From: an uncultured archaeon
GTDB lineage: Archaea > Thermoproteota > Bathyarchaeia > Bathyarchaeales > Bathycorpusculaceae
Length of the DNA stretch: 32,213 nt
Reading direction: 5' to 3'
NCBI GenBank assembly: GCA_963782915.1
Contig: CAWALK010000005.1
Location: forward strand, 1 to 32,213
In this document: piece by piece, positions 14,251 to 32,213 of the stretch
Layout of the letters: each line of letters begins with the position of its first letter
Numbering within the stretch: position 1 is the first letter of the stretch
The notes under the pieces: model-generated
The model's database searches: none
Seen by the model: only the letters and a program-made list of their open reading frames with translations
Told to the model about the DNA's origin: nothing
Translations under genes and position numbers: made by a program

Positions 14251-14451
14251 AATTTTCTTTATTTCTTTTTATTTAGAATCTTTAGCAAATGTATAGCTTT
14301 CCAAATTAGACTATCTGCCTTTGTTTAGGGTTAAGAGTTATTTTGTGTGTTTTGTTGATGCTTTCGTATACAGAAAACGCACGGACGTTTTTCAGGTTGA
14401 CCTCCCTCCTGTTAGTAGACCCGACATTCTGATCTGTTTGTGTTTGCTCCT

Positions 14452-14580
14452 CAACCAGCCAGCAACCCAAACCAGACGCTAAACGCCAAAAGCAATCGCC
14501 AGCGTCGCCCATTGGTTGTTGTTGTGTATAGGGGGTTTCCGCCAACAACACACTGTAGAAAAACAAGCAACAAACAACTT
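14452..14580 (+). repeat. Dispersed intergenic hairpin repeat, copy 2
   Basis: caaccagc..aaccagacgc..ccaaaagcaat..ccc.ttggttgttgttg..tatagggg..caacaac..aaaaa.caag..aaacaactt aligns with 14890-15017. Confidence 0.75.
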
Positions 14581-14889
14581 GATTTACTAATATAATGAAG
14601 GGAAAATTGGCAGAGCAACAAGCATCCACTGGTACACCGAATCGCAGAAGTCTCCGGCGTAGATGTATAGCAAACCCGCAAATCAGCCTGCAACCGCACA
14701 AATCCCGCAGCCGCCAAACAACAAACGCCGCCCTTAAGCTGGCTCATTCATGCAGTTGTTGAGCCTATAAATAAGGGAGGGGGTCTAGCTCAGAGCAGCA
14801 AAAGCGCTCCTTATAGGGGATAGGGGGTCAGTGGCAAAGCAACAAACCCTGTTATAGGCTGTTTCTGGCACTGTTTGCAGAAGTCTCCA

Positions 14890-15017
14890 CAACCAGCAAG
14901 CTAACTAAACCAAACGCAGAAAACCAAAAGCAATGCACCGCACAGCCCGTTGGTTGTTGTTGAAATAATAGGGGTCCACAGCAACAACCAAGATAAAAAA
15001 CCAAGACTAAACAACTT
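14890..15017 (+). repeat. Dispersed intergenic hairpin repeat, copy 3
   Basis: Contains a perfect TTGGTTGTTG/CAACAACCAA stem (14950-14991) around a loop with ATAGGGG; aligns with 14452-14580. Confidence 0.75.
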
Positions 15018-17683: not shown

Positions 17684-17836
17684 AAGTTAGAATATAAATT
17701 GGATGAACTTCTAGTGCATAACGCTTCCGCGTTTGTTGGAGCACCAACCAACACCTTCTTAATAATTTGTTAATCCATCGTCTCGGCTGGGCAGGTGCAA
17801 AGTTTTTACTAAACTAGTCCTTGCCCGAAAAAAATT

Positions 17837-17855
17837 GGAGAAAAGAAAAAAATTG
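17837..17855 (+). promoter_or_regulatory. Conserved leader/RBS motif GGAGA(A/T)AAGAAAAA(AA)TTG of the surface-protein genes
   Basis: GGAGAAAAGAAAAAAATTG here; GGAGATAAGAAAAATTG at 25059-25075; AGAGGAAAGAAAAAAAATG at 28968-28986; GGAGATAAGAAAAAATTG at 32139-32156. Confidence 0.7.
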
Positions 17856-20408
17856 AAAACTCTAAACAATAAAATCATCGCAAGTCTTATCGCAGTAATT
17901 CTAGTATCCTCAATGGCTATCGCAATCGGAAACCTACCCAATGCTAGCGCACACAACCCTGCTTGGGAAATCCCAACATGGTGCTACATGCAGGTTTCAC
18001 CAAACCCTGTCGGTTTGGGACAACCAGTAGCATTCGTCATTTGGAACACTCGTGTTCCTGACGGAGCGTTAGTAACTAACGACATCAGATGGAAAAACTA
18101 TACCATCGTTCTAACAAAACCTGATAACACAACCGAAGTTCTCGGTGGATTCAACTCTGACCCCACTGGTTCAACATACACACAATACACACCAAACCAA
18201 ATCGGCAATTGGACAGCTAAACTAATCTTCCCAGCACAAGTCCTCACAACAACAGGCACACTCGCAAACGACGTATTCAAAGAAAGCACGTACACAACCA
18301 CCTTCACAGTACAGCAAGACGCAATTTCCACCGTAAGCTACCAATATCCATTACCCACAGAATATTGGACTCGTCCAATCGAGGGTCAAAACAATGATTG
18401 GTTCACACTAGGCTCAAACTGGCTTCGAGGCTCTCAAGTCCAGATCGCACCAAGCGGAACTGGAACTTCTGGCAGAGTTCAACTAGACGGTATTGCACCA
18501 AACAGTGGACACATCATGTGGACAACACCCCTTGAAGACGGCGGAGTAGTCGGTGGAACCAACACCGCTATCGACGGAAACGTCTTCTATTCTGGCACAC
18601 AATACAACCCACGCTTCAATAACGCAATCATTATGGGCGGAAGAATCTACTATTCTGAACCAAAGGAAAACACTGGCACAGGCGGCGACGTTGTATGCCG
18701 TGATCTACGAACTGGCGAAGAACTTTGGAGACGCAGCGACATTTCAATGTTCTCATTCGGTATGTACTACGCAATGGAATACTATAACCAGCACGGAGTT
18801 ATTCCACCAGGAGTACTATTCACAACATCAGGCAGCACAATAATCGCATACAACCCCCTCAACGGTCACGAGATGGGCTGGAACCTAACCAACGTTCCAA
18901 CCGGATCAATCGCTAACGAAGCAGTCGGTCCATCAGGCGAAATCCTAAGATACCAACTACAAAGCTACGGCACAGGCGCAAACCAAATCTACAAAATACA
19001 ACAATGGAACCTATCCAGAGCATACATCATCAACACTAACCCAACAAACCCAGCAACACTACAAGCAAACGCATCAGCATTCTATGACTTTAACCAAACA
19101 GTAACATACCAAGGCCAACCATTCAAAGTAACAGGCGCAAGCGCACAAGCAGTCATCTACAATGACCTATTACTATTCAGAAACGGCAGCCTACAAACAC
19201 AAACAAGCGGCAACGCACAACCATACACATACTTCGCAGTAGACATCAACGCATCACACACAACACTAGGCAACGTCATATGGATGAAAAACTATGACCA
19301 ACCAACCGGCAACCTAACCCTGCTCTCAACAGCAGCAGGCGACGGCGTTTGGACAATGATGTACAAAGAAACATACCAATGGATCGGATTCGACATGCAC
19401 ACCGGAGCAAAACTCTGGGACCACGCAGCAATGGACTTCTCTGAACTAGACTACAACCCATATGGCTACTACAGCTCAACCACCGGCAACATGCTAACAC
19501 ACGCAATCTACCAGGGCAAACTATACTCAACAGGCTACAGCGGAATGCTCTTCTGCTACGACCTCTACACTGGAAAACTCCTCTGGAAATATGAAGCTCC
19601 AGCAAACATGGAAGTTTTCAAGTACTACACACTACACATCGGCGCAGTCGCAGACGGAAAAGTCTACCTCGGCTCACACGAACACTCTGCAAGCACACCA
19701 CTACTCAAAGGCAACCTAGTAAGATGCGTCAACGCAACAGACGGAACTGAAATTTGGACTCTACCCGGATGGGCAGCAGCATACAGTCCAGTAGTTGCAG
19801 ACGGCTTCCTAGCATACGCCAACCTATACGACAACCAAGTTTACGTCGTCGGTAAAGGTCCAAGCGAAACCACAGTCGAAATCGAAGACAACGTTATCCA
19901 AAGCGGCAGCAGTGTAATGATCACAGGTACAGTAACAGACATCGCTTCAGGCACCACACAGACTGAACAAGCAGCACGTTTCCCCAACGGCGTCCCAGCA
20001 GTTTCAGATGCAAGCATGGGCCAATACATGGCATACGTCTACGAACAAAAACCGCTCCCAACAAACGTAACCGGTGTCCCAGTGACACTAAGCGTTGTTG
20101 ACGCAAACGGCAACTACAGAACCATCGGACAAACCACCACTAACGACGGATTCTTCAGCTTAAGCTGGAAACCAGACGTTGAAGGTGACTTCCAAGTCTA
20201 CGCTTCATTCGGCGGATCTGAATCATACTGGCCATCACATGCAATAACAGCATTCACCGTTGACTCTGCAGCAGCAACACCAGCACCAACACAAACACCA
20301 GCAACACCAATATCTGAGCAATACTTCGTCCCAGCAATCGCAGGTCTACTCGTTGCAATCATCGTGGTCGGTCTATTGACCATCATGATGCTCAAGAAGC
20401 ACCCATAA
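17853..20408 (+). CDS. Secreted, C-terminally anchored PQQ-like beta-propeller surface protein (paralogue 1)
   Basis: Signal peptide; Ig-like SPNPVGLGQ domain; repeats DLRTGEELW, DMHTGAKLW, DLYTGKLLW, NATDGTEIW; RFPNGVPAVSD; P/T linker; TM helix and KKHP. TTG start at 17853 follows the shared leader motif (ORF track 17835). Confidence 0.88.
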   Translation: MKTLNNKIIASLIAVILVSSMAIAIGNLPNASAHNPAWEIPTWCYMQVSPNPVGLGQPVAFVIWNTRVPDGALVTNDIRWKNYTIVLTKPDNTTEVLGGFNSDPTGSTYTQYTPNQIGNWTAKLIFPAQVLTTTGTLANDVFKESTYTTTFTVQQDAISTVSYQYPLPTEYWTRPIEGQNNDWFTLGSNWLRGSQVQIAPSGTGTSGRVQLDGIAPNSGHIMWTTPLEDGGVVGGTNTAIDGNVFYSGTQYNPRFNNAIIMGGRIYYSEPKENTGTGGDVVCRDLRTGEELWRRSDISMFSFGMYYAMEYYNQHGVIPPGVLFTTSGSTIIAYNPLNGHEMGWNLTNVPTGSIANEAVGPSGEILRYQLQSYGTGANQIYKIQQWNLSRAYIINTNPTNPATLQANASAFYDFNQTVTYQGQPFKVTGASAQAVIYNDLLLFRNGSLQTQTSGNAQPYTYFAVDINASHTTLGNVIWMKNYDQPTGNLTLLSTAAGDGVWTMMYKETYQWIGFDMHTGAKLWDHAAMDFSELDYNPYGYYSSTTGNMLTHAIYQGKLYSTGYSGMLFCYDLYTGKLLWKYEAPANMEVFKYYTLHIGAVADGKVYLGSHEHSASTPLLKGNLVRCVNATDGTEIWTLPGWAAAYSPVVADGFLAYANLYDNQVYVVGKGPSETTVEIEDNVIQSGSSVMITGTVTDIASGTTQTEQAARFPNGVPAVSDASMGQYMAYVYEQKPLPTNVTGVPVTLSVVDANGNYRTIGQTTTNDGFFSLSWKPDVEGDFQVYASFGGSESYWPSHAITAFTVDSAAATPAPTQTPATPISEQYFVPAIAGLLVAIIVVGLLTIMMLKKHP

Positions 20409-20429
20409 ATAACAAACATAAAAACAAAA

Positions 20430-20455
20430 CTTTCCCACCCTTTTTTAGTTTAAAT
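20430..20455 (+). terminator. Conserved pyrimidine/oligo-T tract after beta-propeller gene 1 (putative terminator or processing site)
   Basis: CTTTCCCACCCTTTTTTAGTTTAAAT; near-identical tracts at 27676-27701 and 31609-31635. Confidence 0.6.
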
Positions 20456-20463
20456 GGTAAGTC

Positions 20464-20579
20464 AACTGGGGCTGAGAAGGCGACTGGTTACGATTTACGA
20501 TGTTTGCAATCATCGTGGATCTAATTTGCAGTTGTGTTCTACTCTCCTTAATGGTCCAGTCGCCTCAGCAAACCCAGTT
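20464..20579 (+). ncRNA. Putative structured ncRNA, copy A of a 4-copy family
   Basis: AACTGGG/CCCAGTT; GCTG/CAGC with an AAA bulge; perfect AGGCGACTGG (20478-87)/CCAGTCGCCT (20556-65); inner ACGATG/CATCGT hairpin with TTTGCAAT loop; TTTGCA...CTCTCCTTAA segment. Confidence 0.7.
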
Positions 20580-20644
20580 AACAGTGCCAAATTTTAGTTA
20601 TGCCAAGCGACGATTTATTTAATTAGCTTTAGATTTGAAGCCGT

Positions 20645-21601
20645 TTAGAAGGTTGAGAGGAATTCTCTACGGAGTGGCCATACAGGAAATAATCTGGAAA
20701 CAGATATCTCCCAATTAGTTAGGTTATTTATTGCCAGAATCTGCTCCTTGAAACCCACAAATTGGTCAATATCTCTAATCATCAAGCTCGCTATGCAATC
20801 AAATTTGCCGCTGGTTTTATGAATAAAGTTAATGTCAGGAGATTGAGAAATGGCTTCTACACTCCTGCTGAGGTTATCTTGAGAGAATGATAATTTGAAG
20901 AGAGCAAAAGCCCTGTACCCAATTTTTAAGGGGTTGATTTGAATTACTGGTTTTATGTCTTTGTTGCGCTTGAGTTTTCCGTATCTTCTAATAACGGTAT
21001 CTGTTGAGATGCCGAGTTCTTTACTGATATTGCAAAATGGGGTTCGCCCATTTGTTACCAATTTTTCAATTATGAATTTGTCAATATCATCAATTTCGAT
21101 ACGATTGATTTCTTTGTCTGTGCTTTGATCATTTTCTCCAGCAACTGCGTTAGCTAGTACAGATAGATTATCTGGGTTGTTACACATTCCTAGCCAAACT
21201 TGAGCTTCTACCTCTAGGACGTAGGGTAATTGCTTGATGGATTGTTTAGTTTGCTCTATCTCCTGCATTGTTTTTACGGTGAATATCGCGCTAAGGTTTG
21301 GATTAACTCCTTCAGGATAAACTTCAATCACGTTGGCTGCATCGTTGAGAAGCTTGATAACATAATCTGCCTTGTGTAGTTGAGTGTAAATGTTGAAGGT
21401 TGCGACAAAATTGCTGTTGTAACAGGCGCAACTGTTTTGGATGGTTGCTCCAACGATTATGCCTTGTTTTTTCATTTGTTTGTATCTGTTAGCGATGACT
21501 TCTTTGGATACGTTGCATTGTTGGGCGATGGCTGTGAAGCTTTTCCGTCCATCTTTTAGCAGTTCTTTTAGGATTGTTGCGTTAATGCGGTCGATCTTCA
21601 T
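20645..21601 (-). CDS. Lrp/AsnC family regulator with two tandem HTH+RAM units
   Basis: IDRINATILKELLKDGRKSFTAIA...VS...R and IDDIDKFIIEKLVTNGRTPF..ISKELGISTDTVIRR; C-terminal TSGKFD. Confidence 0.88.
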   Translation of the reverse strand: MKIDRINATILKELLKDGRKSFTAIAQQCNVSKEVIANRYKQMKKQGIIVGATIQNSCACYNSNFVATFNIYTQLHKADYVIKLLNDAANVIEVYPEGVNPNLSAIFTVKTMQEIEQTKQSIKQLPYVLEVEAQVWLGMCNNPDNLSVLANAVAGENDQSTDKEINRIEIDDIDKFIIEKLVTNGRTPFCNISKELGISTDTVIRRYGKLKRNKDIKPVIQINPLKIGYRAFALFKLSFSQDNLSRSVEAISQSPDINFIHKTSGKFDCIASLMIRDIDQFVGFKEQILAINNLTNWEISVSRLFPVWPLRREFLSTF

Positions 21602-21787
21602 GGATGGTTGCTTCCGATTGTTTGCTTTCTGTTAATGATTGGTTTGACAACGTCTTAAATTACTTTCGGAAATAATGAAAATTCGCACCTGAATTCTTTA
21701 ATTCTTTCCATTTTTATAGTATGTCAGTCGAAAAAACTATATAATAAATTAAAGAAAAATATGGCAAAACGATAGATTAAGATAAAA

Positions 21788-21893
21788 CGGGCTGAATAGG
21801 CGCTGGTAAGTATCACGATATTGCCTGCCCGGTGTTTCGTGGAGAGCTTTTGCATTTAGCTCTTACTCCTTATCCAGAGCCTCAGCAAACCAC
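21788..21893 (+). ncRNA. Putative structured ncRNA, copy D (stand-alone)
   Basis: GGGCTGAATAGGCGCTGG ... CACGATATTG-CCTGCC-CGGTGTTTCGTG ... TTTTGCATTTAGCTCTTACTCCTTAT CCAGAGCCTCAGCAAACC, with the same order of elements as copy A. Confidence 0.65.
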
Positions 21894-22064
21894 AAAAACG
21901 TAGTTACTATTAACCGGCCGCTGATACCACATTATCAATCCTTAGCGGATGCACATGCCTCTGAGGATAGCTTGGTTTTGCTTAGGTTTTACGAATTACC
22001 CGCACAGAGATGCTTAGACAGCAATTAAAATATACCAAGTAAACATTGACTTGCTGGGTAAGCT

Positions 22065-22266: not shown

Positions 22267-22704
22267 ATGATGAAAGACAGCGATGGATGGTTTGAACTTA
22301 AAATAGAAAGTGACCTAAAGAACCTAGAAATTGTAGCGGATTTCATAACTAAAACCATGCGTGAATCAGGCGCACAAAATGAAAAAGACATATTCGATGT
22401 CCAATTAGCCGTAGACGAAGCCTTAACAAACATAATCGAACACGCTTACGCCGGCATTAAAGGCGGCAAAATCACAGTACAATGCCGACTATCAGAATCA
22501 AAAAAAGAGTTCATAGTTAAACTTAAAGACTCAGGCAAACCCTTTGATCCCCAAACTGTCGCTTCTCCAGACACCGACGCCGAATTAGAGGAACGCAAAG
22601 TCGGCGGATTGGGAATTTACTTCATGAAACAGCTTATGCAAACCGTTAAATACGCCATCAACGACAAGGAAAACGAATTAACGATGGCTAAGATTCTTAG
22701 CTGA
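22267..22704 (+). CDS. RsbW/SpoIIAB-like anti-sigma-factor Ser/Thr kinase (HATPase_c_2)
   Basis: QLAVDEALTNIIEHAY (N box), DSGKPFDP (G1), RKVGGLGIYFMKQLM (G2), NELTM. Confidence 0.9.
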   Translation: MMKDSDGWFELKIESDLKNLEIVADFITKTMRESGAQNEKDIFDVQLAVDEALTNIIEHAYAGIKGGKITVQCRLSESKKEFIVKLKDSGKPFDPQTVASPDTDAELEERKVGGLGIYFMKQLMQTVKYAINDKENELTMAKILS

Positions 22705-22714
22705 GGGTTTAACG

Positions 22715-23050
22715 ATGAGTGTTGAAGTTAAAACTGTGGGCGACGTAAAAATTATTTGTATCATGAAACGATTTGATGCTTATACTGCAAACCAGGTTGA
22801 GGCAGAATTAACAAGACTTATTGCGGAAGGTTCTCGCAAGATAGTGTGCGATTTCTCACAAACAGAGTACCTTGCCAGTGCTGGACTTCGCGTGCTCATA
22901 ACTGCCACCAGAAGCCTCCAGAAAGTAGGCGGCAAAATTGTGCTCTGCTCAGTCAAGCCCTATGTGCTCGAAGTCTTCGAAATATCTGGCTTAAAGAAGA
23001 TCTTCAAAATATTCGATTCCACCGACGCCGCCCTACAAGAACTAAAATAA
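22715..23050 (+). CDS. STAS-domain anti-anti-sigma factor (RsbV/SpoIIAA-like)
   Basis: RFDAYTA, DFSQTEYLASAGLRVL (phosphoacceptor Ser kept), VFEISGL. Confidence 0.9.
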   Translation: MSVEVKTVGDVKIICIMKRFDAYTANQVEAELTRLIAEGSRKIVCDFSQTEYLASAGLRVLITATRSLQKVGGKIVLCSVKPYVLEVFEISGLKKIFKIFDSTDAALQELK

Positions 23051-24830: not shown

Positions 24831-25072
24831 TGAGTTGAAGGGATCAGAGAAACTTCTGGAGAGAATTGATGATTTCAAAATAGTATCGTCACATTGAAAT
24901 TAGAATAGTTGGCGAAGTTCCTAGGTATTGTTCTAATCATTTAGTTTTGTAAAGTAACCGCCAGTTTTTGGTAATGGATGTTTTGTAGTGCTGTGGCTGT
25001 TGGTAACAAACGCATTGTTTTAAATATCAACCGCTGAAAAGTAAGGAAGCACAAACAAGGAGATAAGAAAAA

Positions 25073-27656
25073 TTGAATAAAAAAATCTTTGCAATTTTGC
25101 TTTTTTTGGCTTTTGCATTAGGAACATTTGCAGCTATACCAAATGAAGTAAACGTACAAGCAGCAACAGCAGCAACACAAAAGACCTATTCAATTACTGA
25201 TGCAATCCCCGACAAAATAGGCATTGGCGAAACAACACTTCTCAAAACCGGTATTACACAAGCACTAAACGCAGCCGAAGATGGTTGGAGCGGCCTTACA
25301 ATCACAGTCACAAAACCAGACGGTACAAACACAACATTGGGACCGTTCAAGTCAGACTCGACTGGTTCAACCTTCACCCAATACACGCCAGACGCAGTAG
25401 GCACCTACACTATAACAAGCAACTTCCCACAACAAGAAATGCCAGTAAACACAGACGACGCAGAAAGAGGCATAACTATTCCTAAGGGAACCATCATGCT
25501 TGCAAGCAGTGCATCATGCACATTAGTCGTAACAAATGAGCCTTCACCAGTGTATCCTGGTCATTCCCTTCCAACTGAATACTGGAGTCGCCCAATCGAC
25601 CCACAGCTTAGAGAATGGTTCAGCATCTCAGGTAACTGGGTTCAACGACCAGACAATTCATTTGCACTCTTCAATGACGATGCACCAGACACAGCACACG
25701 TACTATGGGCTCAAGACTTAACAACCGGCGGTATGTCAGGCGGTCTCACAGGCCCTGGTCAAGTCACTGCAGGAATGAACTCAGGCGACGCATACGAAGG
25801 CAAATTCTCCAACTCAGTCATACTCAACGGAAAACTTTTCTACAATACTGGACCCGCACCAGGCTTTTACGGTTCACTTGGCTCATGTAACGTCAAAGCA
25901 GTTGACCTACACACAGGCGAGGAACTCTGGGTAAAAAATGACACCTTCCTATCCTTTGGTCAAGAATTCTACTGGAACAGCTACAACGTAGACGGTGTAT
26001 ACAGTTATCTTTGGACAACATCGACCACTTATGATCCACCATTCTTCATCCCAAAAACCACTTGGACTGCATACGACCCCTTTGATGCTTCTTGGTGCTT
26101 CACTTTCGAGAATGTTCCCTCAGGAACACAAATCTATGGCCCAAGCGGCGAAATCCTGATCTATCAAATTGACCTCGTCAACAACCGACTGATGCTTTGG
26201 AACTCAACCCTCTGCGGTCTACAAAATGCGGCGCCAGATTCACCTGATCTCGGTAGTTGGGCAAGCAACGTCATGATGAGAACATTCGATGCGTCAAATC
26301 CAAAAAGCTACTCTTGGAATGTCTCTATCCCAGCTGGCTTGAAACAGAAGCACAACATTCGGGGCATCAATCGCGAAGATCTACGATGACAGATATGCCT
26401 CATTATTCTTCAACCAAACAATGGTAAGAGTATGGGCAATCAACACTGCAGGCTTAACAAAAACATCCACATCAGCTTCAATGCTATTCGATCAAACCTG
26501 GGCTGCACCAACCGAATGGCTTGCAGGCTCTAACACTCTACATTACACAGGCGCAACAAATTATGTATCCGACAGTACCTACGGCGACGGTGTCATAGCA
26601 GTATGGGATAAAGAACTAAGAACCCACTATGGCTTCAGCATTGTAACTGGTAAATACCTCTGGGCAACTGGCTCTGAAATCTATTCCGATGCTTACGGAT
26701 GGGGTAATGCAGAACACACTTGGTACTTTGCTTATGGCAAATTGTACTCAGTGGGTGTCGGCGGTATCCTCTATGCTTACGACCTCGCAAACGGAGGCAC
26801 AGCATGGACATACAATCTAACTGGCCGCCCAACTGGAGAACCCGTCACAGGCAACAACTGGTGGGGCTGGATTGACCTAATTTCTGATGGCAAAATCTAC
26901 ATCGGCACACTCGAGCACTCAGCAGAGAACCCACTACCAAGAGGCGCACCCTACATCGCAGTTAACGCAACAGACGGCAGTGAAATCTTCCGTGTCAACG
27001 GTATGTTCCGTGAAACCAGATGGGGCGGTAACGGCATCATCGCTGATAGCATCATCGCAACCATGGACACATACGACCAGCGCGTATATGCAATCGGCAA
27101 AGGCCCAACAAAACTAACTATTGACGTACCAGGTATCGGCGTAGCATCAGGACAAAGCATCATGATACGAGGCACATTAACCGACACATCACCAGCCACC
27201 TCGACTTACGCATTAACCTCAAGATTCCCCAACGGTGTCCCTGCAGTATCTGACGACAGCCAAAGCCAATGGATGCTCTATGTATACAAACAATTCGAAC
27301 GCCCAACAAACGCAACTGGTGTTCCACTAACTATCTCAGTCATTGACGCTAACGGCAACTATAGAACTATCGGAGAAACAAAAAGTGACTCAAACGGAGA
27401 CTACAGCTTCAGTTGGCTCCCAGACATCGCAGGCCAATACAGTGTCTATGTAACCTTCGCTGGATCAAAAGCATACTATCCATCAACCGCTGGAAGCGCT
27501 TTCGTTGTTGACCAAGCACCAGACGCAACCGCAGCGCCAACACAGACACCACAAACAATGACTGATCAATACTTCATACCCGCAGTAGTGGCCATAATCC
27601 TCGCAATCGCAATAGGCTTTGTAGTAACAATTCTGGTCCTAAGGAAACGACCGTAA
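25073..27656 (+). pseudogene. PQQ-like beta-propeller surface protein (paralogue 2) split by a single +1 frameshift (ORFs 25073-26389 and 26421-27656)
   Basis: The two ORFs are the N- and C-terminal halves of the paralogue architecture. Removing one base at ttgAAAcag (26342-26344) gives PAGL-NRSTTFGASIAKIYDDR...MVRVW and an 860-aa protein. It may be a true lesion or an assembly error. Confidence 0.8.
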
Positions 27657-27716
27657 AATAAGAAAAATAAACAATCTTTCCCTCCCTTTTTTAGTTTTAA
27701 TTTGACCCAAGAATTC

Positions 27717-27830
27717 AACTGAGGTTGAGTAAGGCTCTTGAATTGCACGGCGATGGTTGCAGTCATCGTAGTTACATCTGAATTCTCTTACGCCTTAAGG
27801 AAAAGTGACAAAAGCCATAGCGGCCTTGGA
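27717..27830 (+). ncRNA. Putative structured ncRNA, copy B (most diverged)
   Basis: After the same pyrimidine tract: AACTGAGGTTGAGTAAGGCT..., GCGATGG-TTGCAG-TCATCGT hairpin (27750-27769), TTACAT...CGCCTTAA. GGCTCTTG/CAAAAGCC and CTGAGGTTG/CGGCCTTGG pairing are possible with G-U. Confidence 0.55.
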
Positions 27831-27864
27831 AGAAGAACCCTGAAGCTAACCATAGCTTGAGGCT

Positions 27865-28143
27865 TTATTTATAGCTCATACCCATGCGTTTCATAAAAGA
27901 TAGAACAGCTTCATATTCGTCTATGTATTGTCTGCCTTTCTCAGTAAGCTTAAGCGACGTCTCGTTTTCAATTAGACCTAACTCCTTTAGGTCAGAAATG
28001 TATTTTTTTAAACGGGTAAATGGAACATTAATTTTCAACTGGATGTGCGTAATAATTATTTTTTCATTAGCGGATTCGGCACGGATTATTAATAGAAGAT
28101 CCCCATAAATTTTCATTTTATCTCTTCTTTGGATCTTCTTCAT
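27865..28143 (-). CDS. Winged helix-turn-helix regulator (HTH_45-like), paralogue of 16560-16838
   Basis: RRDKMKIYGDLL, ITHIQLKINVPFTRL, ELGLI, LTEKG, F(M/F)(K/R)RMG shared tail. Confidence 0.85.
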   Translation of the reverse strand: MKKIQRRDKMKIYGDLLLIIRAESANEKIIITHIQLKINVPFTRLKKYISDLKELGLIENETSLKLTEKGRQYIDEYEAVLSFMKRMGMSYK

Positions 28144-28145
28144 GG

Positions 28146-28841
28146 TTAGTGCCTTTTTTTCTTGATTAGGTAAAAAGTTTTAGAGGCTGATATGAGAAAA
28201 ACGGCCAGACTCGTTAAACGGAGCGCTAAAGATACCCAAAATGCAAAAACGCCTGAATAGAAATTCAATATTAAATATGATAACTGGCTTAGTCCAAGGA
28301 GTGCATAACCACTCAGTACCCATATAGATATTGGGTCAGGCTCTTTTGCTTGCTCCCTGAAGCAGTGAATGAAAATGTATGTAAGGCAAACAAGGTTTAA
28401 GATTCGAATAAAACTACTTAGAGTTAGGTAACTGCGTATTGGTATTTGTGGGGCAATAAAATTTAAAAGAAGTAGGGCCGCTAAGGACACAAATAGTCCG
28501 CTAAATATAATATCCCAAATGTAACGCGTATTTTTGGTTGGTTTTTTTGAGAAATAGTAGGCAACTGCAAGGAATAAAAATGCAAACGCCCTAAAAAGAA
28601 GTTGAATCCACTTTATGCCACTTTCATAGAAATTAGGTTGAGCATATGCTATTGCCGAAAGAGCGTAAGAGGCGCCGAGAAAACCGAATCCGAGCGGTAA
28701 ACCGATATAGCGACCTTCACGAGTAACTATATAGGGTTTAATCATAAACCACAGTAAAACAGCGCAAGCGACCGCTGATATAATTTCTACTGCGATACGT
28801 AGTATTATGTCAGACATAGGTTGGTTCAGCCAGAGGTACAA
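28146..28841 (-). CDS. 7-TM membrane protein (putative sensor), paralogue of 15863-16582
   Basis: KPY...REGRYIGLPLGFGFLGASY, NLVCLTYI, SQLSYL, RLTSLAVF. Its stop lies 2 bp from the wHTH start; alternative ATG at 28817. Confidence 0.8.
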   Translation of the reverse strand: MYLWLNQPMSDIILRIAVEIISAVACAVLLWFMIKPYIVTREGRYIGLPLGFGFLGASYALSAIAYAQPNFYESGIKWIQLLFRAFAFLFLAVAYYFSKKPTKNTRYIWDIIFSGLFVSLAALLLLNFIAPQIPIRSYLTLSSFIRILNLVCLTYIFIHCFREQAKEPDPISIWVLSGYALLGLSQLSYLILNFYSGVFAFWVSLALRLTSLAVFLISASKTFYLIKKKRH

Positions 28842-28955
28842 CTTTTAGTATATTCATCTTTCTTGCTTTTTAGTGCTATCTTATTGAAAAATATGTATTT
28901 ACGTTATACGAACCACAGGTCCATGAGTCTTATTAATTGAAACTGCAAAATATGG

Positions 28956-28971
28956 CTCTATAAATATAGAG
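28956..28971. promoter_or_regulatory. Inverted repeat CTCTATA-AA-TATAGAG overlapping a TATA-like box and the RBS of paralogue 3
   Basis: Perfect 7-bp inverted repeat in the divergent intergenic region between the 7TM-wHTH operon and the surface-protein gene. Confidence 0.35.
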
Positions 28972-28983
28972 GAAAGAAAAAAA

Positions 28984-31584
28984 ATGAAAATTAAATTATC
29001 GAATAAAACTATCAGCGCTTTAATTGCTTTGACTCTAATACTGACAATTGCTATCACAATGTTTACTTTACCCTCTGCCAACTCAGCAACGGTACCTACA
29101 CTTACAAGGAAGGCAAATGTCTACATTGCAGCTACCCCTAATCCAGTAGGAACCGGTCAGGAAACACTGCTTCATATTGGTATGAAAGATGAGCTTCAAG
29201 CAGAGTACCTGGGCTGGAAGGGCTTAAGCATAACGATTCAAAAACCAGACGGTACCACAGAGACACTCACAGATATCAATACTGATTCGACTGGTGGAAC
29301 GGGCAGAATATACGTACCTTCTGTGGCAGGTAACTACACTATACAGGCGCATTTCCCCGCACAATGGCAGAACGTTACAGTTAACGGTGGTGCCAATATA
29401 TTCTATGACGCGGCTGTCAGCCCGAATGTAACACTTACCGTAACCGAAGACCCAATACCCACATATCCAGGGCATTCACTCCCAACCGAATACTGGTCTC
29501 GACCAATTGATTCACAGCTTAGAGAATGGTATGAGGTTACTGGAAACTGGTTAACAACATACCCCGCAAATCGATATGCCAAATACAACAGTGAGGCACC
29601 AGAAAGCGCACACATTCTATGGGCTAACCAACTAGCAGAAGGCGGACTCAGCGACGGTTTGATTGGCTCTGACAATTCAACTCACTCCTACGAGGACGGT
29701 AGCGCATACGAAAACAAGTTCTACAACTCAGTAATACTAAGTGGCGTACTCTACTACAACCTGTATGAAAGTCGTGGCGATCCATATGCTGAACAAATAG
29801 TCGTTGCTGTAGATTTGAAGACTGGTGAAGAGCTCTGGTCTAAACCTCTTATTGGCAAAGTAGCTCGCTCAGGAACCACCGCCGCAGAGACAGTTGCATC
29901 TGCAAATATAGTCATCGATGGAGTAAGCGACCAATTCCCAGATGGCATTGGCAGAAGACTAGCGTTTGGTCAACTCTTCTATTGGAACTCATACAACTAC
30001 GACGGCTCTTACGCATTACTATGGACAACCAGTGGCACAACTTGGATGGCATTTGACGCTTACACTGGACGATGGATATACACCATTATGAACGTACCCA
30101 CCGGCACCACAACCTACGGTATAAACGGTGAACTCTTAAGAGTTGACGTTCAGAACACGAAAGGCTACATAGCTATGTGGAACTCGAGTAATCTAGTATC
30201 AGCCGCAGGAAGCTGGAACCCACATGGAAACGTCTACAACGCAACAGGAACGGGGGCAGGACCTAAGCGTGCATGGGAATGGAACGTAACGATACCAAAG
30301 TTAGCGGGAAGTGTTATGCATATTCTTGAAGATAGAGTGCTTGGTTCAAACTATGGTAGTGACAGATATATTCAGCAAGCGATTGTGCGACAGAATGCTG
30401 ATATTAACTTCTGGGGAATAAGCACAGACCCAGAAAACCCGGGAAAACTGCTGTTTAACACAACATGGACACCGCCAAAGGATGAGACTATATATTCAAA
30501 GGCTGCAAGTCTAGATGCTGGCTTTTTCTTAGTTACTACTAAAGAATCAGCTTCACACTATGCTTTCGATATTGATACTGGTAAACTGCTTTGGGGCCCA
30601 ACAGTACCGCAAAACTATCTCGACTCATTTAGTATTCTACTCTACGGTGCGCCCAAGATCGTCTACGGCAATGTCTACTGCCAAGCTATGAGCGGAATAT
30701 TGTATTGCTACGATGGTGCGACAGGCGAAACTCTATGGACCTATGAACCTACTGACCCCTACAACGAGGTACTATGGTCAGACCAGTGGACATCAACTAT
30801 AATGTTCATCGCTGACGGAAAAATTTACAGTGGCAACTATGAGCACTCCCCAGAGACTCCTAGAGCACGCGGCGCGACATTCACATGCATCAATGCCTCA
30901 AACGGTGGTCTCATATGGAAGCAAGATGGCATATGGCCAACAAGTTACACCCCTGACGCAATGATTGGAGACAGCACAATGGTGCTAATGGACGCATACG
31001 AGAATACCATATACGCTTATGGCAAAGGACCAAGCGCCACTGAAGTCACCGCACCGAGTGTAAGCGTCACTGCAGGCGACAATATAGTGATATCCGGCAG
31101 CGTTACGGACATTTCACCGGGAACCGATGAATATGCATTGACGGCGAGATTCCCCAACGGCGTTCCAGCAGTCTCTGATGAGAGCCAAAGCGCATGGATG
31201 CTCTATGTATACAAACAATTCGAATGCCCAACAAACACTACTGGCGTTGAAGTAATCTTAACTGCTTTGGACCCTAATGGTAACTATATCACCCTCGGCT
31301 CGACTACAACGGATGCAAGCGGCACCTTCGGATACAACTGGGCAACACCTGACATTCCAGGCAAGTACACGATCACTGCCATATTCGCTGGCTCCTCGGC
31401 ATACTATTCTTCAAATGCACAAACCTACGCTATCATAGAGTCTGCACCTGAACCCACCGCTGAACCAACAAAAACACCAACGGCAATCTCAGAAACCTAC
31501 TTTGTACCTGCAATTGTGGGTCTATTCATTGCAATAGTAGTAGGTTTCGTGTTGATGCTATTAGTACTCAGGAAACGACCATAA
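28984..31584 (+). CDS. Secreted, C-terminally anchored PQQ-like beta-propeller surface protein (paralogue 3)
   Basis: Signal peptide; TPNPVGTGQ; LPTEYWSRPID; DLKTGEELW, DIDTGKLLW, DGATGETLW; RFPNGVPAVSD; P/T linker; TM helix and RKRP. Confidence 0.9.
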   Translation: MKIKLSNKTISALIALTLILTIAITMFTLPSANSATVPTLTRKANVYIAATPNPVGTGQETLLHIGMKDELQAEYLGWKGLSITIQKPDGTTETLTDINTDSTGGTGRIYVPSVAGNYTIQAHFPAQWQNVTVNGGANIFYDAAVSPNVTLTVTEDPIPTYPGHSLPTEYWSRPIDSQLREWYEVTGNWLTTYPANRYAKYNSEAPESAHILWANQLAEGGLSDGLIGSDNSTHSYEDGSAYENKFYNSVILSGVLYYNLYESRGDPYAEQIVVAVDLKTGEELWSKPLIGKVARSGTTAAETVASANIVIDGVSDQFPDGIGRRLAFGQLFYWNSYNYDGSYALLWTTSGTTWMAFDAYTGRWIYTIMNVPTGTTTYGINGELLRVDVQNTKGYIAMWNSSNLVSAAGSWNPHGNVYNATGTGAGPKRAWEWNVTIPKLAGSVMHILEDRVLGSNYGSDRYIQQAIVRQNADINFWGISTDPENPGKLLFNTTWTPPKDETIYSKAASLDAGFFLVTTKESASHYAFDIDTGKLLWGPTVPQNYLDSFSILLYGAPKIVYGNVYCQAMSGILYCYDGATGETLWTYEPTDPYNEVLWSDQWTSTIMFIADGKIYSGNYEHSPETPRARGATFTCINASNGGLIWKQDGIWPTSYTPDAMIGDSTMVLMDAYENTIYAYGKGPSATEVTAPSVSVTAGDNIVISGSVTDISPGTDEYALTARFPNGVPAVSDESQSAWMLYVYKQFECPTNTTGVEVILTALDPNGNYITLGSTTTDASGTFGYNWATPDIPGKYTITAIFAGSSAYYSSNAQTYAIIESAPEPTAEPTKTPTAISETYFVPAIVGLFIAIVVGFVLMLLVLRKRP

Positions 31585-31644
31585 GGTGAAAACGAAATGA
31601 AAAACACCCTTTCCCTTCCTTTTTTTAGTTTCAATTTATGTTTC

Positions 31645-31762
31645 AGGCTGGGGCTGAGTGGGCTTCTGGACTACTGTTTTACGCGGTGTTTGCGATCATC
31701 GTGTTTGCATTTTTCTTCTCTCCTTAAGAATAAATGTCTAGGCGCCTCAGTAAACCCAGTTT
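31645..31762 (+). ncRNA. Putative structured ncRNA, copy C
   Basis: AGGCTGGG/CCCAGTTT; GCTGAG/CTCAGT with an AAA bulge; CTGGAC/GTCTAG; ACGCGGTG/CATCGTGT hairpin with TTTGCGAT loop; TTTGCATTTTTCTTCTCTCCTTAA; followed by a T-rich tract at 31766-31788. Confidence 0.7.
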
Positions 31763-31798
31763 AAACCTTTTTTCGTTTTCTTTTTCTTGAAATAATTA

Positions 31799-31868
31799 GG
31801 CGCCGGGGTTAAGGACTCGAACCCCTGTGGGCATGAAGCCTCTGGCTGTCTTGCCATTTCTGGCTCTT
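31799..31868 (-). pseudogene. Degenerate 3' part of a long-variable-arm tRNA (Ser/Leu-like)
   Basis: Reverse complement: GCCAG (3' anticodon stem) A GGC-TTCAT-GCC (variable arm) CACA GGGG-TTCGAGT-CCTT (T arm) AA CCCCGGC G CC. No matching 5' acceptor strand GCCGGGG or D arm is present upstream. Confidence 0.6.
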
Positions 31869-32153
31869 GCCCTTACGATAGGTTTTTTTTAATGTGGGTT
31901 TTTTGCATGCGCTACTTTGGTACTTTATGGCTTAATTTTAGCAACGAGAATTGTAAAAGGCAAAACTGATTTAGCAAAGAATGGTTTGTGCCTTATCTTT
32001 CGTTTATGAATAAAAATAAGAAAAAATGCTATATTCGTAATCGTTATTCATAATTATACTTAATTTTATGGCAAGTTTGAAGCATATTTGCAAAACCATA
32101 AATACGCAAAGGAAACAAAAAAAGAAGCCATAGACATAGGAGATAAGAAAAAA

Positions 32154-32213
32154 TTGCATGTATTAAAAAAAATTGCAACAATAATGTCTGTTTTGTTAAT
32201 TGCTTGTATTGTA
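32154..32213 (+). CDS. 5' end of another secreted protein (truncated by the window edge), possibly a fourth beta-propeller paralogue
   Basis: TTG start after GGAGATAAGAAAAAA; translation MHVLKKIATIMSVLLIACIV resembles the signal peptide of paralogue 2 (MNKKIFAILLFL). Confidence 0.6.
   Translation, partial: MHVLKKIATIMSVLLIACIV

Follow-up and report, generated by a model that had tools for sequence, protein, structure and literature searches.

A candidate family-wide anti-start-site RNA attached to surface-protein genes of Bathyarchaeia

In bacteria, small RNAs (sRNAs) that derive from 3′ untranslated regions (UTRs) or repress the envelope, such as CpxQ, MicA, RybB and OmrA/B, arise from or beside the 3′ end of an mRNA, or pair at the start regions of many envelope-protein mRNAs and limit their synthesis. 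To our knowledge, very few regulatory RNAs of archaea have known targets, and we know of none for Bathyarchaeia, an abundant lineage that is rarely cultured. The archaeal splicing endonuclease acts on bulge–helix–bulge (BHB) substrates, which include tRNA introns, rRNA processing stems, the cbf5 mRNA and the 5′ UTR intron of HVO_1309. From Methanosarcina mazei come two sRNAs of particular relevance: a passage in PMC5867862 proposes that sRNA41 represses translation by masking ribosome-binding sites (RBSs), and we count sRNA162 (PMC3510493) with it among the RBS-masking sRNAs of archaea. Our subject is a 32,213-nt stretch of DNA from an uncultured archaeon of the Bathycorpusculaceae (GenBank assembly GCA_963782915.1, contig CAWALK010000005.1, positions 1 to 32,213 of the forward strand), which we call the window. 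At 31647-31761 on its + strand lies a noncoding RNA (ncRNA) element, copy C, whose segment at 31704-31727 is antisense to the start regions of a family of surface-protein genes. The segment belongs to a lineage-specific Bathyarchaeia family of structured RNAs, about 100-130 nt long and probably read from the + strand.

The likeness to sRNA41, as that passage describes it, lies in a small RNA stretch complementary to the RBSs of several related mRNAs. The Bathyarchaeia RNA differs from sRNA41 and sRNA162 in being multi-copy (8-18 per genome) and attached to the 3′ ends of its presumed targets, in covering them from the Shine–Dalgarno sequence (SD) through position +7, and in its BHB-like closing stem; we found no relation to either by sequence or in Rfam. 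With the bacterial sRNAs it shares the putative 3′-end origin and the predicted pairing at start regions of surface-protein mRNAs, whereas it belongs to a different domain of life, has no Hfq or RNase E context, tends to be brought along as a separate copy by each member of the gene family, and carries an antisense stretch that co-varies with the family leader.

The letters at 31704-31727 are TTTGCATTTTTCTTCTCTCCTTAA. Their reverse complement is, just as the initial annotation of this DNA had read it, an SD followed by a 7-nt spacer and ATG-CAAA; on the RNA this becomes UUUG-CAU opposite the start codon, a U-rich spacer and CUCUCCUU opposite the SD. Copy C begins 63 nt past the stop codon of the surface-protein gene at 28984-31584, and is matched by our covariance model at 57 bits (E=5e-12) with a fold z-score of -3.9. 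Potential partners on the + strand of the window are the start regions of paralogue 1 (17837-17855, GGAGAAAAGAAAAAAA-UUG, with TTG at 17853 the likely start), of paralogue 2 (25057-25075, AAGGAGAUAAGAAAAA-UUG, TTG at 25073), of copy C's own host gene (28962-28986, AGAGGAAAGAAAAAAA-AUG) and of the edge gene, a paralogue that runs off the end of the window (32137-32156, UAGGAGAUAAGAAAAAA-UUG).

The complementarity that the initial annotation had counted holds up on recalculation. Segment C matches 15/16 positions of the paralogue 2 leader at 25057-25072, directly before the TTG, and 13/14 positions of the paralogue 1 leader at 17837-17850, and it forms the duplex with a 2-nt bulge that had been proposed for the edge gene. 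In all four leaders the complementarity takes in the SD, the start codon or both. Within the window, copy C pairs best with the leader of the edge gene (-19.4 kcal/mol), ahead of paralogue 2 (-17.7), the host gene (-15.2) and paralogue 1 (-14.7). The host gene's leader had been called a weaker partner, which it is when set against paralogue 2 and the edge gene but not clearly so against paralogue 1. The 16-mer complement of segment C has eight matches in the window at three mismatches or fewer against 0.40 expected, and none of 100 shuffles reaches eight, which places the complementarity beyond chance. Four of these matches are surface-protein gene leaders (at 17835, 25057, 28969 and 32137), copies C and A of the RNA account for two, and the remaining two are unrelated.

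Few interior parts of the RNA family are as conserved as the segment. Of 118 elements, 85 have TTCTCC exactly and 108 have it if one mismatch is allowed; the consensus reads CUUUUCUCCU(U/A)(A/U), with GCAU or UUCAU upstream in most elements. The paralogue leaders of the host genome read uAGGAGAAAAGAAAAAUG(C/A)AAA, those of host genes in other genomes are alike, and the leader consensus is the reverse complement of UUUGCAUUUUUCUUUUCUCCUa. The segment thus mirrors, in antisense, the start region of the gene family, taking in the SD, the A-rich spacer, the start codon and positions +4 to +7: UUUG-CAU, a U-rich spacer and CUCCU on the RNA stand against AGGAG, an A-rich spacer and AUG-CAAA on the leader. 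The 16S rRNA ends in GGAUCACCUCCU, so CUCCU is common to the RNA and the ribosome's anti-SD; the match of the RNA to the leaders extends past it through the spacer and start codon to +4 to +7. With TTCTCC conserved across copies, what had been taken for a variable guide on a fixed scaffold is itself a conserved motif.

The preference of copy C for its family extends beyond the window. From the host genome we took the start regions of 1951 open reading frames (ORFs) of at least 200 codons, 807 of them with an SD-like motif. The median energy with segment C is -14.8 kcal/mol for 24 paralogue leaders, -10.3 for other SD-bearing start regions and -8.0 for all others (p=2.8e-5), and 150 dinucleotide-shuffled versions of the segment all fall short of that paralogue median and of the observed difference. 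Copy C therefore outdoes both the shuffled sequences and the ordinary SD-containing leaders that had been suggested as controls. Paralogues make up five of its top 20 partners and eight of its top 50, with 24 in the set. Among the 18 distinct copies of the host genome, five are enriched at p<=4e-4, and in these five CAU, U-tract and CUCC are contiguous.

A segment tied up in its own fold could not serve in this way, as the initial annotation recognized. In the predicted folds of 118 members the CUCC core has a mean probability of being unpaired of 0.76 (above 0.5 in 85%), compared with 0.51 for the interior as a whole, and the CAU reaches 0.58; all four CUCC bases are unpaired in the minimum free energy structure of 68/118 members. 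With CUCC predicted to be mostly free, internal pairing does not overturn the idea that the segment pairs with leaders, and its predicted accessibility is that of an RBS-masking sRNA.

Segment and leader also vary together between lineages, another check that had been proposed: CUCC goes with GGAG, and UUCC or UCACC with GGAA or GGUGA. A table of SD against anti-SD types gives GGAG-CUCC 28, GGAG-UUCC 2, GGAA-type-CUCC 4 and GGAA-type-UUCC 6 (Fisher p=0.0012). The second lineage is a family, f5, represented by two genomes (G090 and G098). Its 30 leaders carry GGAA, GGAU or GGGA in 16 cases, GGUGA in six, something else in eight and GGAG in none, and continue as AUG-AAA in 16/30. Its 21 linked RNAs carry UUCC, AUCC or UCCC in 12 cases, UCACC in six, something else in three and CUCC in none, with UUU before the CAU in 18/20. 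In the host genome, CUCC is present in 13/13 RNAs and GGAG in 14/24 leaders. Lineage-matched pairing is the stronger in both directions: -15.19 versus -11.35 kcal/mol (13/13 guides, p=2.4e-4) in one, and -15.05 versus -13.02 (18/21 guides, p=0.0025) in the other. Such a crossing interaction is not producible by base composition alone. In the pattern-scan set, the base after the start codon and the base 5′ of the CAU co-vary weakly: where the host gene has C, the RNA has G in 8/8, and where the host has A, the RNA has G in 14, U in five, C in three, A in one and no CAU in three. Spacer lengths have similar means in RNA and leader (8.8 versus 9.1 nt) without correlation (rho 0.10, p=0.55).

As for the family itself, nhmmer together with a motif scan put its membership in the host genome at about 14. 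A covariance model (R1), built from an alignment of 129 elements (A3), gives 21 matches there, or 18 distinct ones if C5 and C22, two near-duplicate contigs, are treated as one. Copies A, B and D of the window are all present at the positions that the initial annotation implied. When one genome from each prokaryote species was scanned for an exact pattern, more than 114 stretches came up, almost all of them in metagenome-assembled genomes of Bathyarchaeia and a few on short contigs filed under other names. The covariance model is positive in 6/101 sampled Bathyarchaeia genomes, at 8-18 copies each, and all six belong to two families of one order; the RNA family is therefore clade-restricted rather than class-wide. 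The whole window has no match in Rfam release 15 at the gathering score, and at a permissive threshold 20400-22000 yields only two chance-level matches with E>9. Literature searches on BHB motifs, ncRNA and circular RNA in Bathyarchaeia or archaea, supplements excluded, brought up no description of this RNA family. Two divergent members (G000:C20:383531-383638 and C20:389902-389994, both on the - strand) are found past the 16S rRNA gene, at 1.6 and 8 kb from it; the latter keeps the anti-start segment and has a closing stem with a single bulge.

The elements keep close company with one kind of gene. Copies A, B and C lie behind genes that match PQQ_2 beta-propeller models and end in an immunoglobulin-like domain, a membrane helix and RKRP; the typical host protein is a PQQ-beta-propeller of about 850-930 aa with a C-terminal membrane anchor. 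A same-strand ORF of at least 80 codons ends within 200 nt upstream of 98/118 pattern-scan elements, and by eye about 85 of those 98 ORFs have a hydrophobic helix and basic tail at the end and run to about 850-930 codons. PQQ_2 is matched by 49/49 full-length host proteins (48 complete ones plus the window's own). Most copies sit 50-100 nt past the host stop codon, downstream of a protein gene and on its strand as a 3′-UTR-linked sRNA would be. The single-contig genome G090 makes the linkage plain: the RNA follows 14/15 full-length paralogues, and 14/18 matches follow a paralogue. Copies D, J, K and N are free-standing.

In the consensus fold, a strongly conserved stem closes over one or two variable hairpins, and its 3′ strand is preceded by a pyrimidine-rich stretch; a conserved stretch of 20-24 nt is predicted to be exposed. 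Single-sequence fold z-scores run from -2 to -6 for most copies. In A3, 95.3% of stem cells are paired, and stem covariation exceeds 500/500 shuffles by all measures but one; G-U outnumbers A-C in stem cells by 88 to 34, which favors the + strand as the RNA strand. Two sets were free of the pattern by which most A3 rows were chosen, namely 14 copies from the host genome (A2) and 27 model matches from five other genomes (A4), and the same stem bases are nearly invariant in these too. Readings of the stem as a K-turn, a C/D-box RNA or an integron attC site were rejected by eye, the GA pairs, the boxes and the R'/R'' cores that define them being absent. In other genomes, 43 of 116 elements have a GGAG-containing, start-region-like string (for example UGGAGAAAAGAAUGG) directly or up to 25 nt upstream of the stem, which could pair with the segment and is absent from the copies of the window. 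Pairing of the segment with its own purine-rich 5′ flank has no cognate signal (-9.91 versus -9.61 +/- 0.19).

It is the closing stem that brings the splicing endonuclease to mind. In a pre-tRNA, the 5′ strand runs from outer helix to central helix to bulge, and the 3′ strand from central helix to bulge to outer helix. RNAalifold on the 129 sequences of A3 predicts the same order: a 4-bp helix of GCUG with CAGC, A-R-N unpaired on the 5′ strand and AAA unpaired on the 3′ strand, an inner helix that begins with a purine opposite the U or C before CAGC, and outer GG/CC pairs past the AAA. By this register, in which covariation agrees, the 5′ strand of copy C (31650-31662) consists of the outer GGG, GCUG at 31653-31656 as its half of the 4-bp helix, the bulge AGU at 31657-31659 and the start of the inner helix; the 3′ strand (31745-31757) consists of the end of the inner helix, CAGU at 31748-31751, the bulge AAA at 31752-31754 and the outer pairs of CCC at 31755-31757. 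The first inner pair in the 27 unbiased matches is AU in 13, GC in nine, GU in three and unpaired in two, and a rival 5-bp register with the invariant A paired would leave 11/27 A-C mismatches. The inner helix has 8-9 bp with covariation. The predicted structure therefore has two 3-nt bulges on opposite strands with a 4-bp helix between them, and a passage in PMC7714728 describes the BHB motif in those terms, as a 3-4-3 arrangement. The genome encodes both an endonuclease and a ligase that could act on it, in the form of two EndA homologues (PF01974; open frames of 189 and 184 aa) and one RtcB, and ARAGORN predicts introns in four of the 49 tRNAs it found.

The likeness to BHB substrates takes in the 3-4-3 layout of that passage, the strand order of pre-tRNA and the enzymes. 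The predicted stem departs from known substrates in being near-invariant in sequence (GCUG/CAGC, AAA) with a short outer helix, and in belonging to an element that is free-standing or lies behind protein genes. Given the layout together with EndA and RtcB, the inner ~100 nt may be excised and circularised; we regard this as possible.

We read these observations as a family-wide anti-start-site RNA, attached to surface-protein genes and possibly released at a BHB motif, and put the probability of this reading at roughly one half. If it is transcribed from the + strand, the RNA would pair in vivo with the start regions of the family's mRNAs, cover the SD, the start codon and the first codons, and lower translation. 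It would probably damp the translation of the whole gene family rather than switch single members: the near-identical stretch in all copies, matching host and sibling leaders alike, implies that control would be family-wide, a dosage or feedback brake and not a paralogue-specific one. Processing may cut the inner ~100 nt from a longer transcript and circularise it.

Several points weigh against this reading, and it is as well to have them together. To begin with the stem, 115 of the 129 A3 rows owe their selection to a pattern in which much of its sequence is fixed, so its conservation there is partly by construction. The near-invariance of GCUG/CAGC and AAA is not known as a need of the endonuclease, and the outer helix, usually of 2-5 pairs, is short for a BHB: at least three contiguous pairs occur in 85/117 elements, and the mean of 3.6 is modestly above the 2.9 of mismatched flanks. 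The spacer part of the segment has a predicted probability of being unpaired of 0.39 and is often in a hairpin arm. In the host genome, contig C5 excluded, a recognizable copy follows 8/27 paralogue 3′ ends. As to targets, start codons were called by a crude rule that prefers SD-bearing starts, enrichment against non-family genes covers the host genome only, and the co-variation, which likewise relies on our own start calls, comes mainly from two related lineages and so from few independent events. The top partner of copy C is a non-family gene, and other non-family genes are among its best. Thirteen of the 18 host-genome copies have no significant preference for paralogue leaders. Among these the target enrichment that had been looked for in copies A, D and B failed to appear, with paralogue leaders not enriched at p=0.76, 0.4 and 0.99, respectively.

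A circular form we entertain only tentatively and think on balance unlikely: a ~100-nt circular RNA excised by the splicing machinery, its loop antisense to the family's ribosome-landing site, would be a stable, family-wide governor co-evolving with its targets. Such RNAs, derived from 3′ UTRs, would form a new class among the regulatory circular RNAs of archaea. A true BHB would add a multi-copy regulatory RNA to the substrates of the splicing endonuclease, and link the biogenesis of circular RNA to control of the composition of the cell surface. From sequence alone we obtain the new family of RNAs, the targets it is likely to have, an interface for pairing some 20 nt long and natural compensatory variants in a second lineage, so that the hypothesis could be put directly to the test in a heterologous reporter.

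Other explanations have to be set beside the family-wide RNA. The one that survives best is that the element works in cis, folding as part of the 3′ UTR onto the start region of its own mRNA, with BHB excision relieving or fixing that state. An element directly past the stop codon in most cases, an SD type associated with the anti-SD type and a BHB-like stem that would permit removal from a longer transcript all fit. So does a comparison across genomes, in which 40 cognate pairs of segment and leader have a mean energy of -14.73 against -13.67 kcal/mol for non-cognate ones, and 39/5000 permutations reach the cognate mean. Within the host genome, however, host leaders rank 6, 21, 17, 19 and 4 of 24 for their own element, which is no preference; there are free-standing copies, namely D (with its own TATA-like box), J, K and N; and between stop codon and element lies a T-rich tract at which host transcription could end. 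We consider action in cis unlikely, if deserving of attention. What the ranks and the cognate comparison describe is pairing that is family-generic with a small lineage effect, and with no sign of sparing the host while hitting its siblings; the sibling-over-host discrimination that had been claimed for this RNA is not borne out.

A second possibility is that the RNA has another role, for example binding a protein, stabilising a 3′ end by its structure or mimicking the 16S 3′ tail, and that its antisense likeness is left over from an inverted duplication at the 5′ end of some gene, or a by-product of a U-rich terminator. A stem conserved far beyond the needs of pairing would suit such a role, as would the CUCCU held in common with the 16S 3′ end and the 13/18 copies lacking a significant target preference. 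Against it, complementarity spans the SD to +7 and exceeds that of 150/150 composition-matched shuffles, and several positions are re-tuned at once in the second lineage, unlike a relic or a U-tract. We judge it rather improbable.

The family-wide RNA must also be distinguished from the model that the initial annotation put forward, in which each locus makes an sRNA of fixed scaffold and variable guide that represses siblings and not the host, giving mutually exclusive expression of surface proteins. Its appeal is easy to see, with a large gene family of about 27 loci and a copy C that pairs better with paralogue 2 and the edge gene than with its host. Part of the underlying interpretation has lasted: the element carries a segment antisense to the family's start regions, and this segment is predicted to be accessible and co-varies with the leaders between lineages. 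The variable guide, the sibling specificity and the mutual exclusion have not. A fixed segment that is a conserved family motif, host leaders that are not systematically avoided, cognate pairs that across genomes are slightly stronger instead of weaker, and copies A, D and B without target enrichment leave mutual exclusion unsupported, and we now think it very improbable.

Still less probable is a role at the level of DNA, with the segment and a neighboring paralogue start serving as inverted repeats for recombination or inversion, and so for phase or antigenic variation, in which no RNA pairing would be involved. Segment C and the edge-gene leader, about 410 bp from each other, are indeed inverted repeats that enclose the promoter region of the edge gene, and two versions of the locus, one of them longer by a tandem paralogue unit of 3.9 kb, suggest that paralogues recombine. 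The repeats are imperfect, though (a mismatch and the 2-nt bulge), many elements have no paralogue start nearby (copy A is followed by a minus-strand regulator gene), the stem covaries in the manner of RNA with G-U exceeding A-C, and the segment is single-stranded in the predicted fold. Finally, a small-protein gene on the - strand with a real start region, the RNA fold being incidental, can be dismissed as scarcely credible, because the GGAG, 7-10 nt spacer and ATG found in the reverse complement of 73/118 elements have no conserved open frame behind them (the ORFs run from one to more than 40 codons in differing frames through the conserved stem), 45/118 elements have no SD plus ATG, copy C offers only four codons and copy A no ATG, and stem covariation and G-U excess favor the + strand.

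There remain the other copies of the window. Copy A (20465-20579, + strand, 74.5 bits) lies behind the gene at 17835-20408; its anti-start segment is at 20523-20549, with CAG in place of CAU. Copy D (21785-21896, + strand, 64.6 bits) is free-standing, with a TATA-like box near 21738-21750 upstream and a segment (21849-21873) that in the predicted fold is partly within a hairpin loop. Copies D and J (G000:C24:139981-140098) share a common hairpin subtype with a GCCUGCCC loop, and each lies shortly downstream of a gene-linked copy, D 1.3 kb from A and J 0.44 kb from F. Copy B (27718-27831, + strand) is degenerate, at 24.5 bits, E=0.004 and a fold z-score of +0.24. It lies behind paralogue 2, which is broken into two ORFs (25073-26389 and 26421-27656) that do not share a frame; the most degenerate RNA copy thus adjoins the split paralogue, and gene and RNA seem to decay together.

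Between stop codon and RNA, copy C is preceded by a conserved pyrimidine-rich spacer (31591-31635, + strand, CUUUCCCUUCCUUUUUUUAGUUU; repeat family D3), found also at 20411-20455 and 27657-27701, and its position-specific composition is repeated in 114 elements of other genomes. A pyrimidine tract, CUUUCCC(U)CCCUUUUUUAGU, stands 28-50 nt upstream of most elements with an A-rich stretch before it, and may be the terminator of the host gene, the promoter of the RNA or both. A looser form of the tract occurs 112 times in the genome, with an element behind seven.

The window is contig C5 of its genome, and it (notably at 25073-32213) and part of contig C22 are near-identical versions of one locus. 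C22 is without one tandem paralogue unit of about 3.9 kb, so that copies A and C lie 11183 nt apart in C5 but 7280 nt in C22, and it contains an apparently chimeric gene; the difference points to tandem paralogues recombining in the population or to two strains having been assembled together. A tRNA scan of the whole window found none. At 22267-23050, beside a thiamine pyrophosphate (TPP) enzyme gene, a pair of genes matching HATPase_c_2 (an anti-sigma-factor-type kinase) and STAS looks like a partner-switching module. Lastly, a 78-nt direct repeat (14447-14524 and 14885-14962, 77% identity, 438 nt apart) lies near short ORFs.

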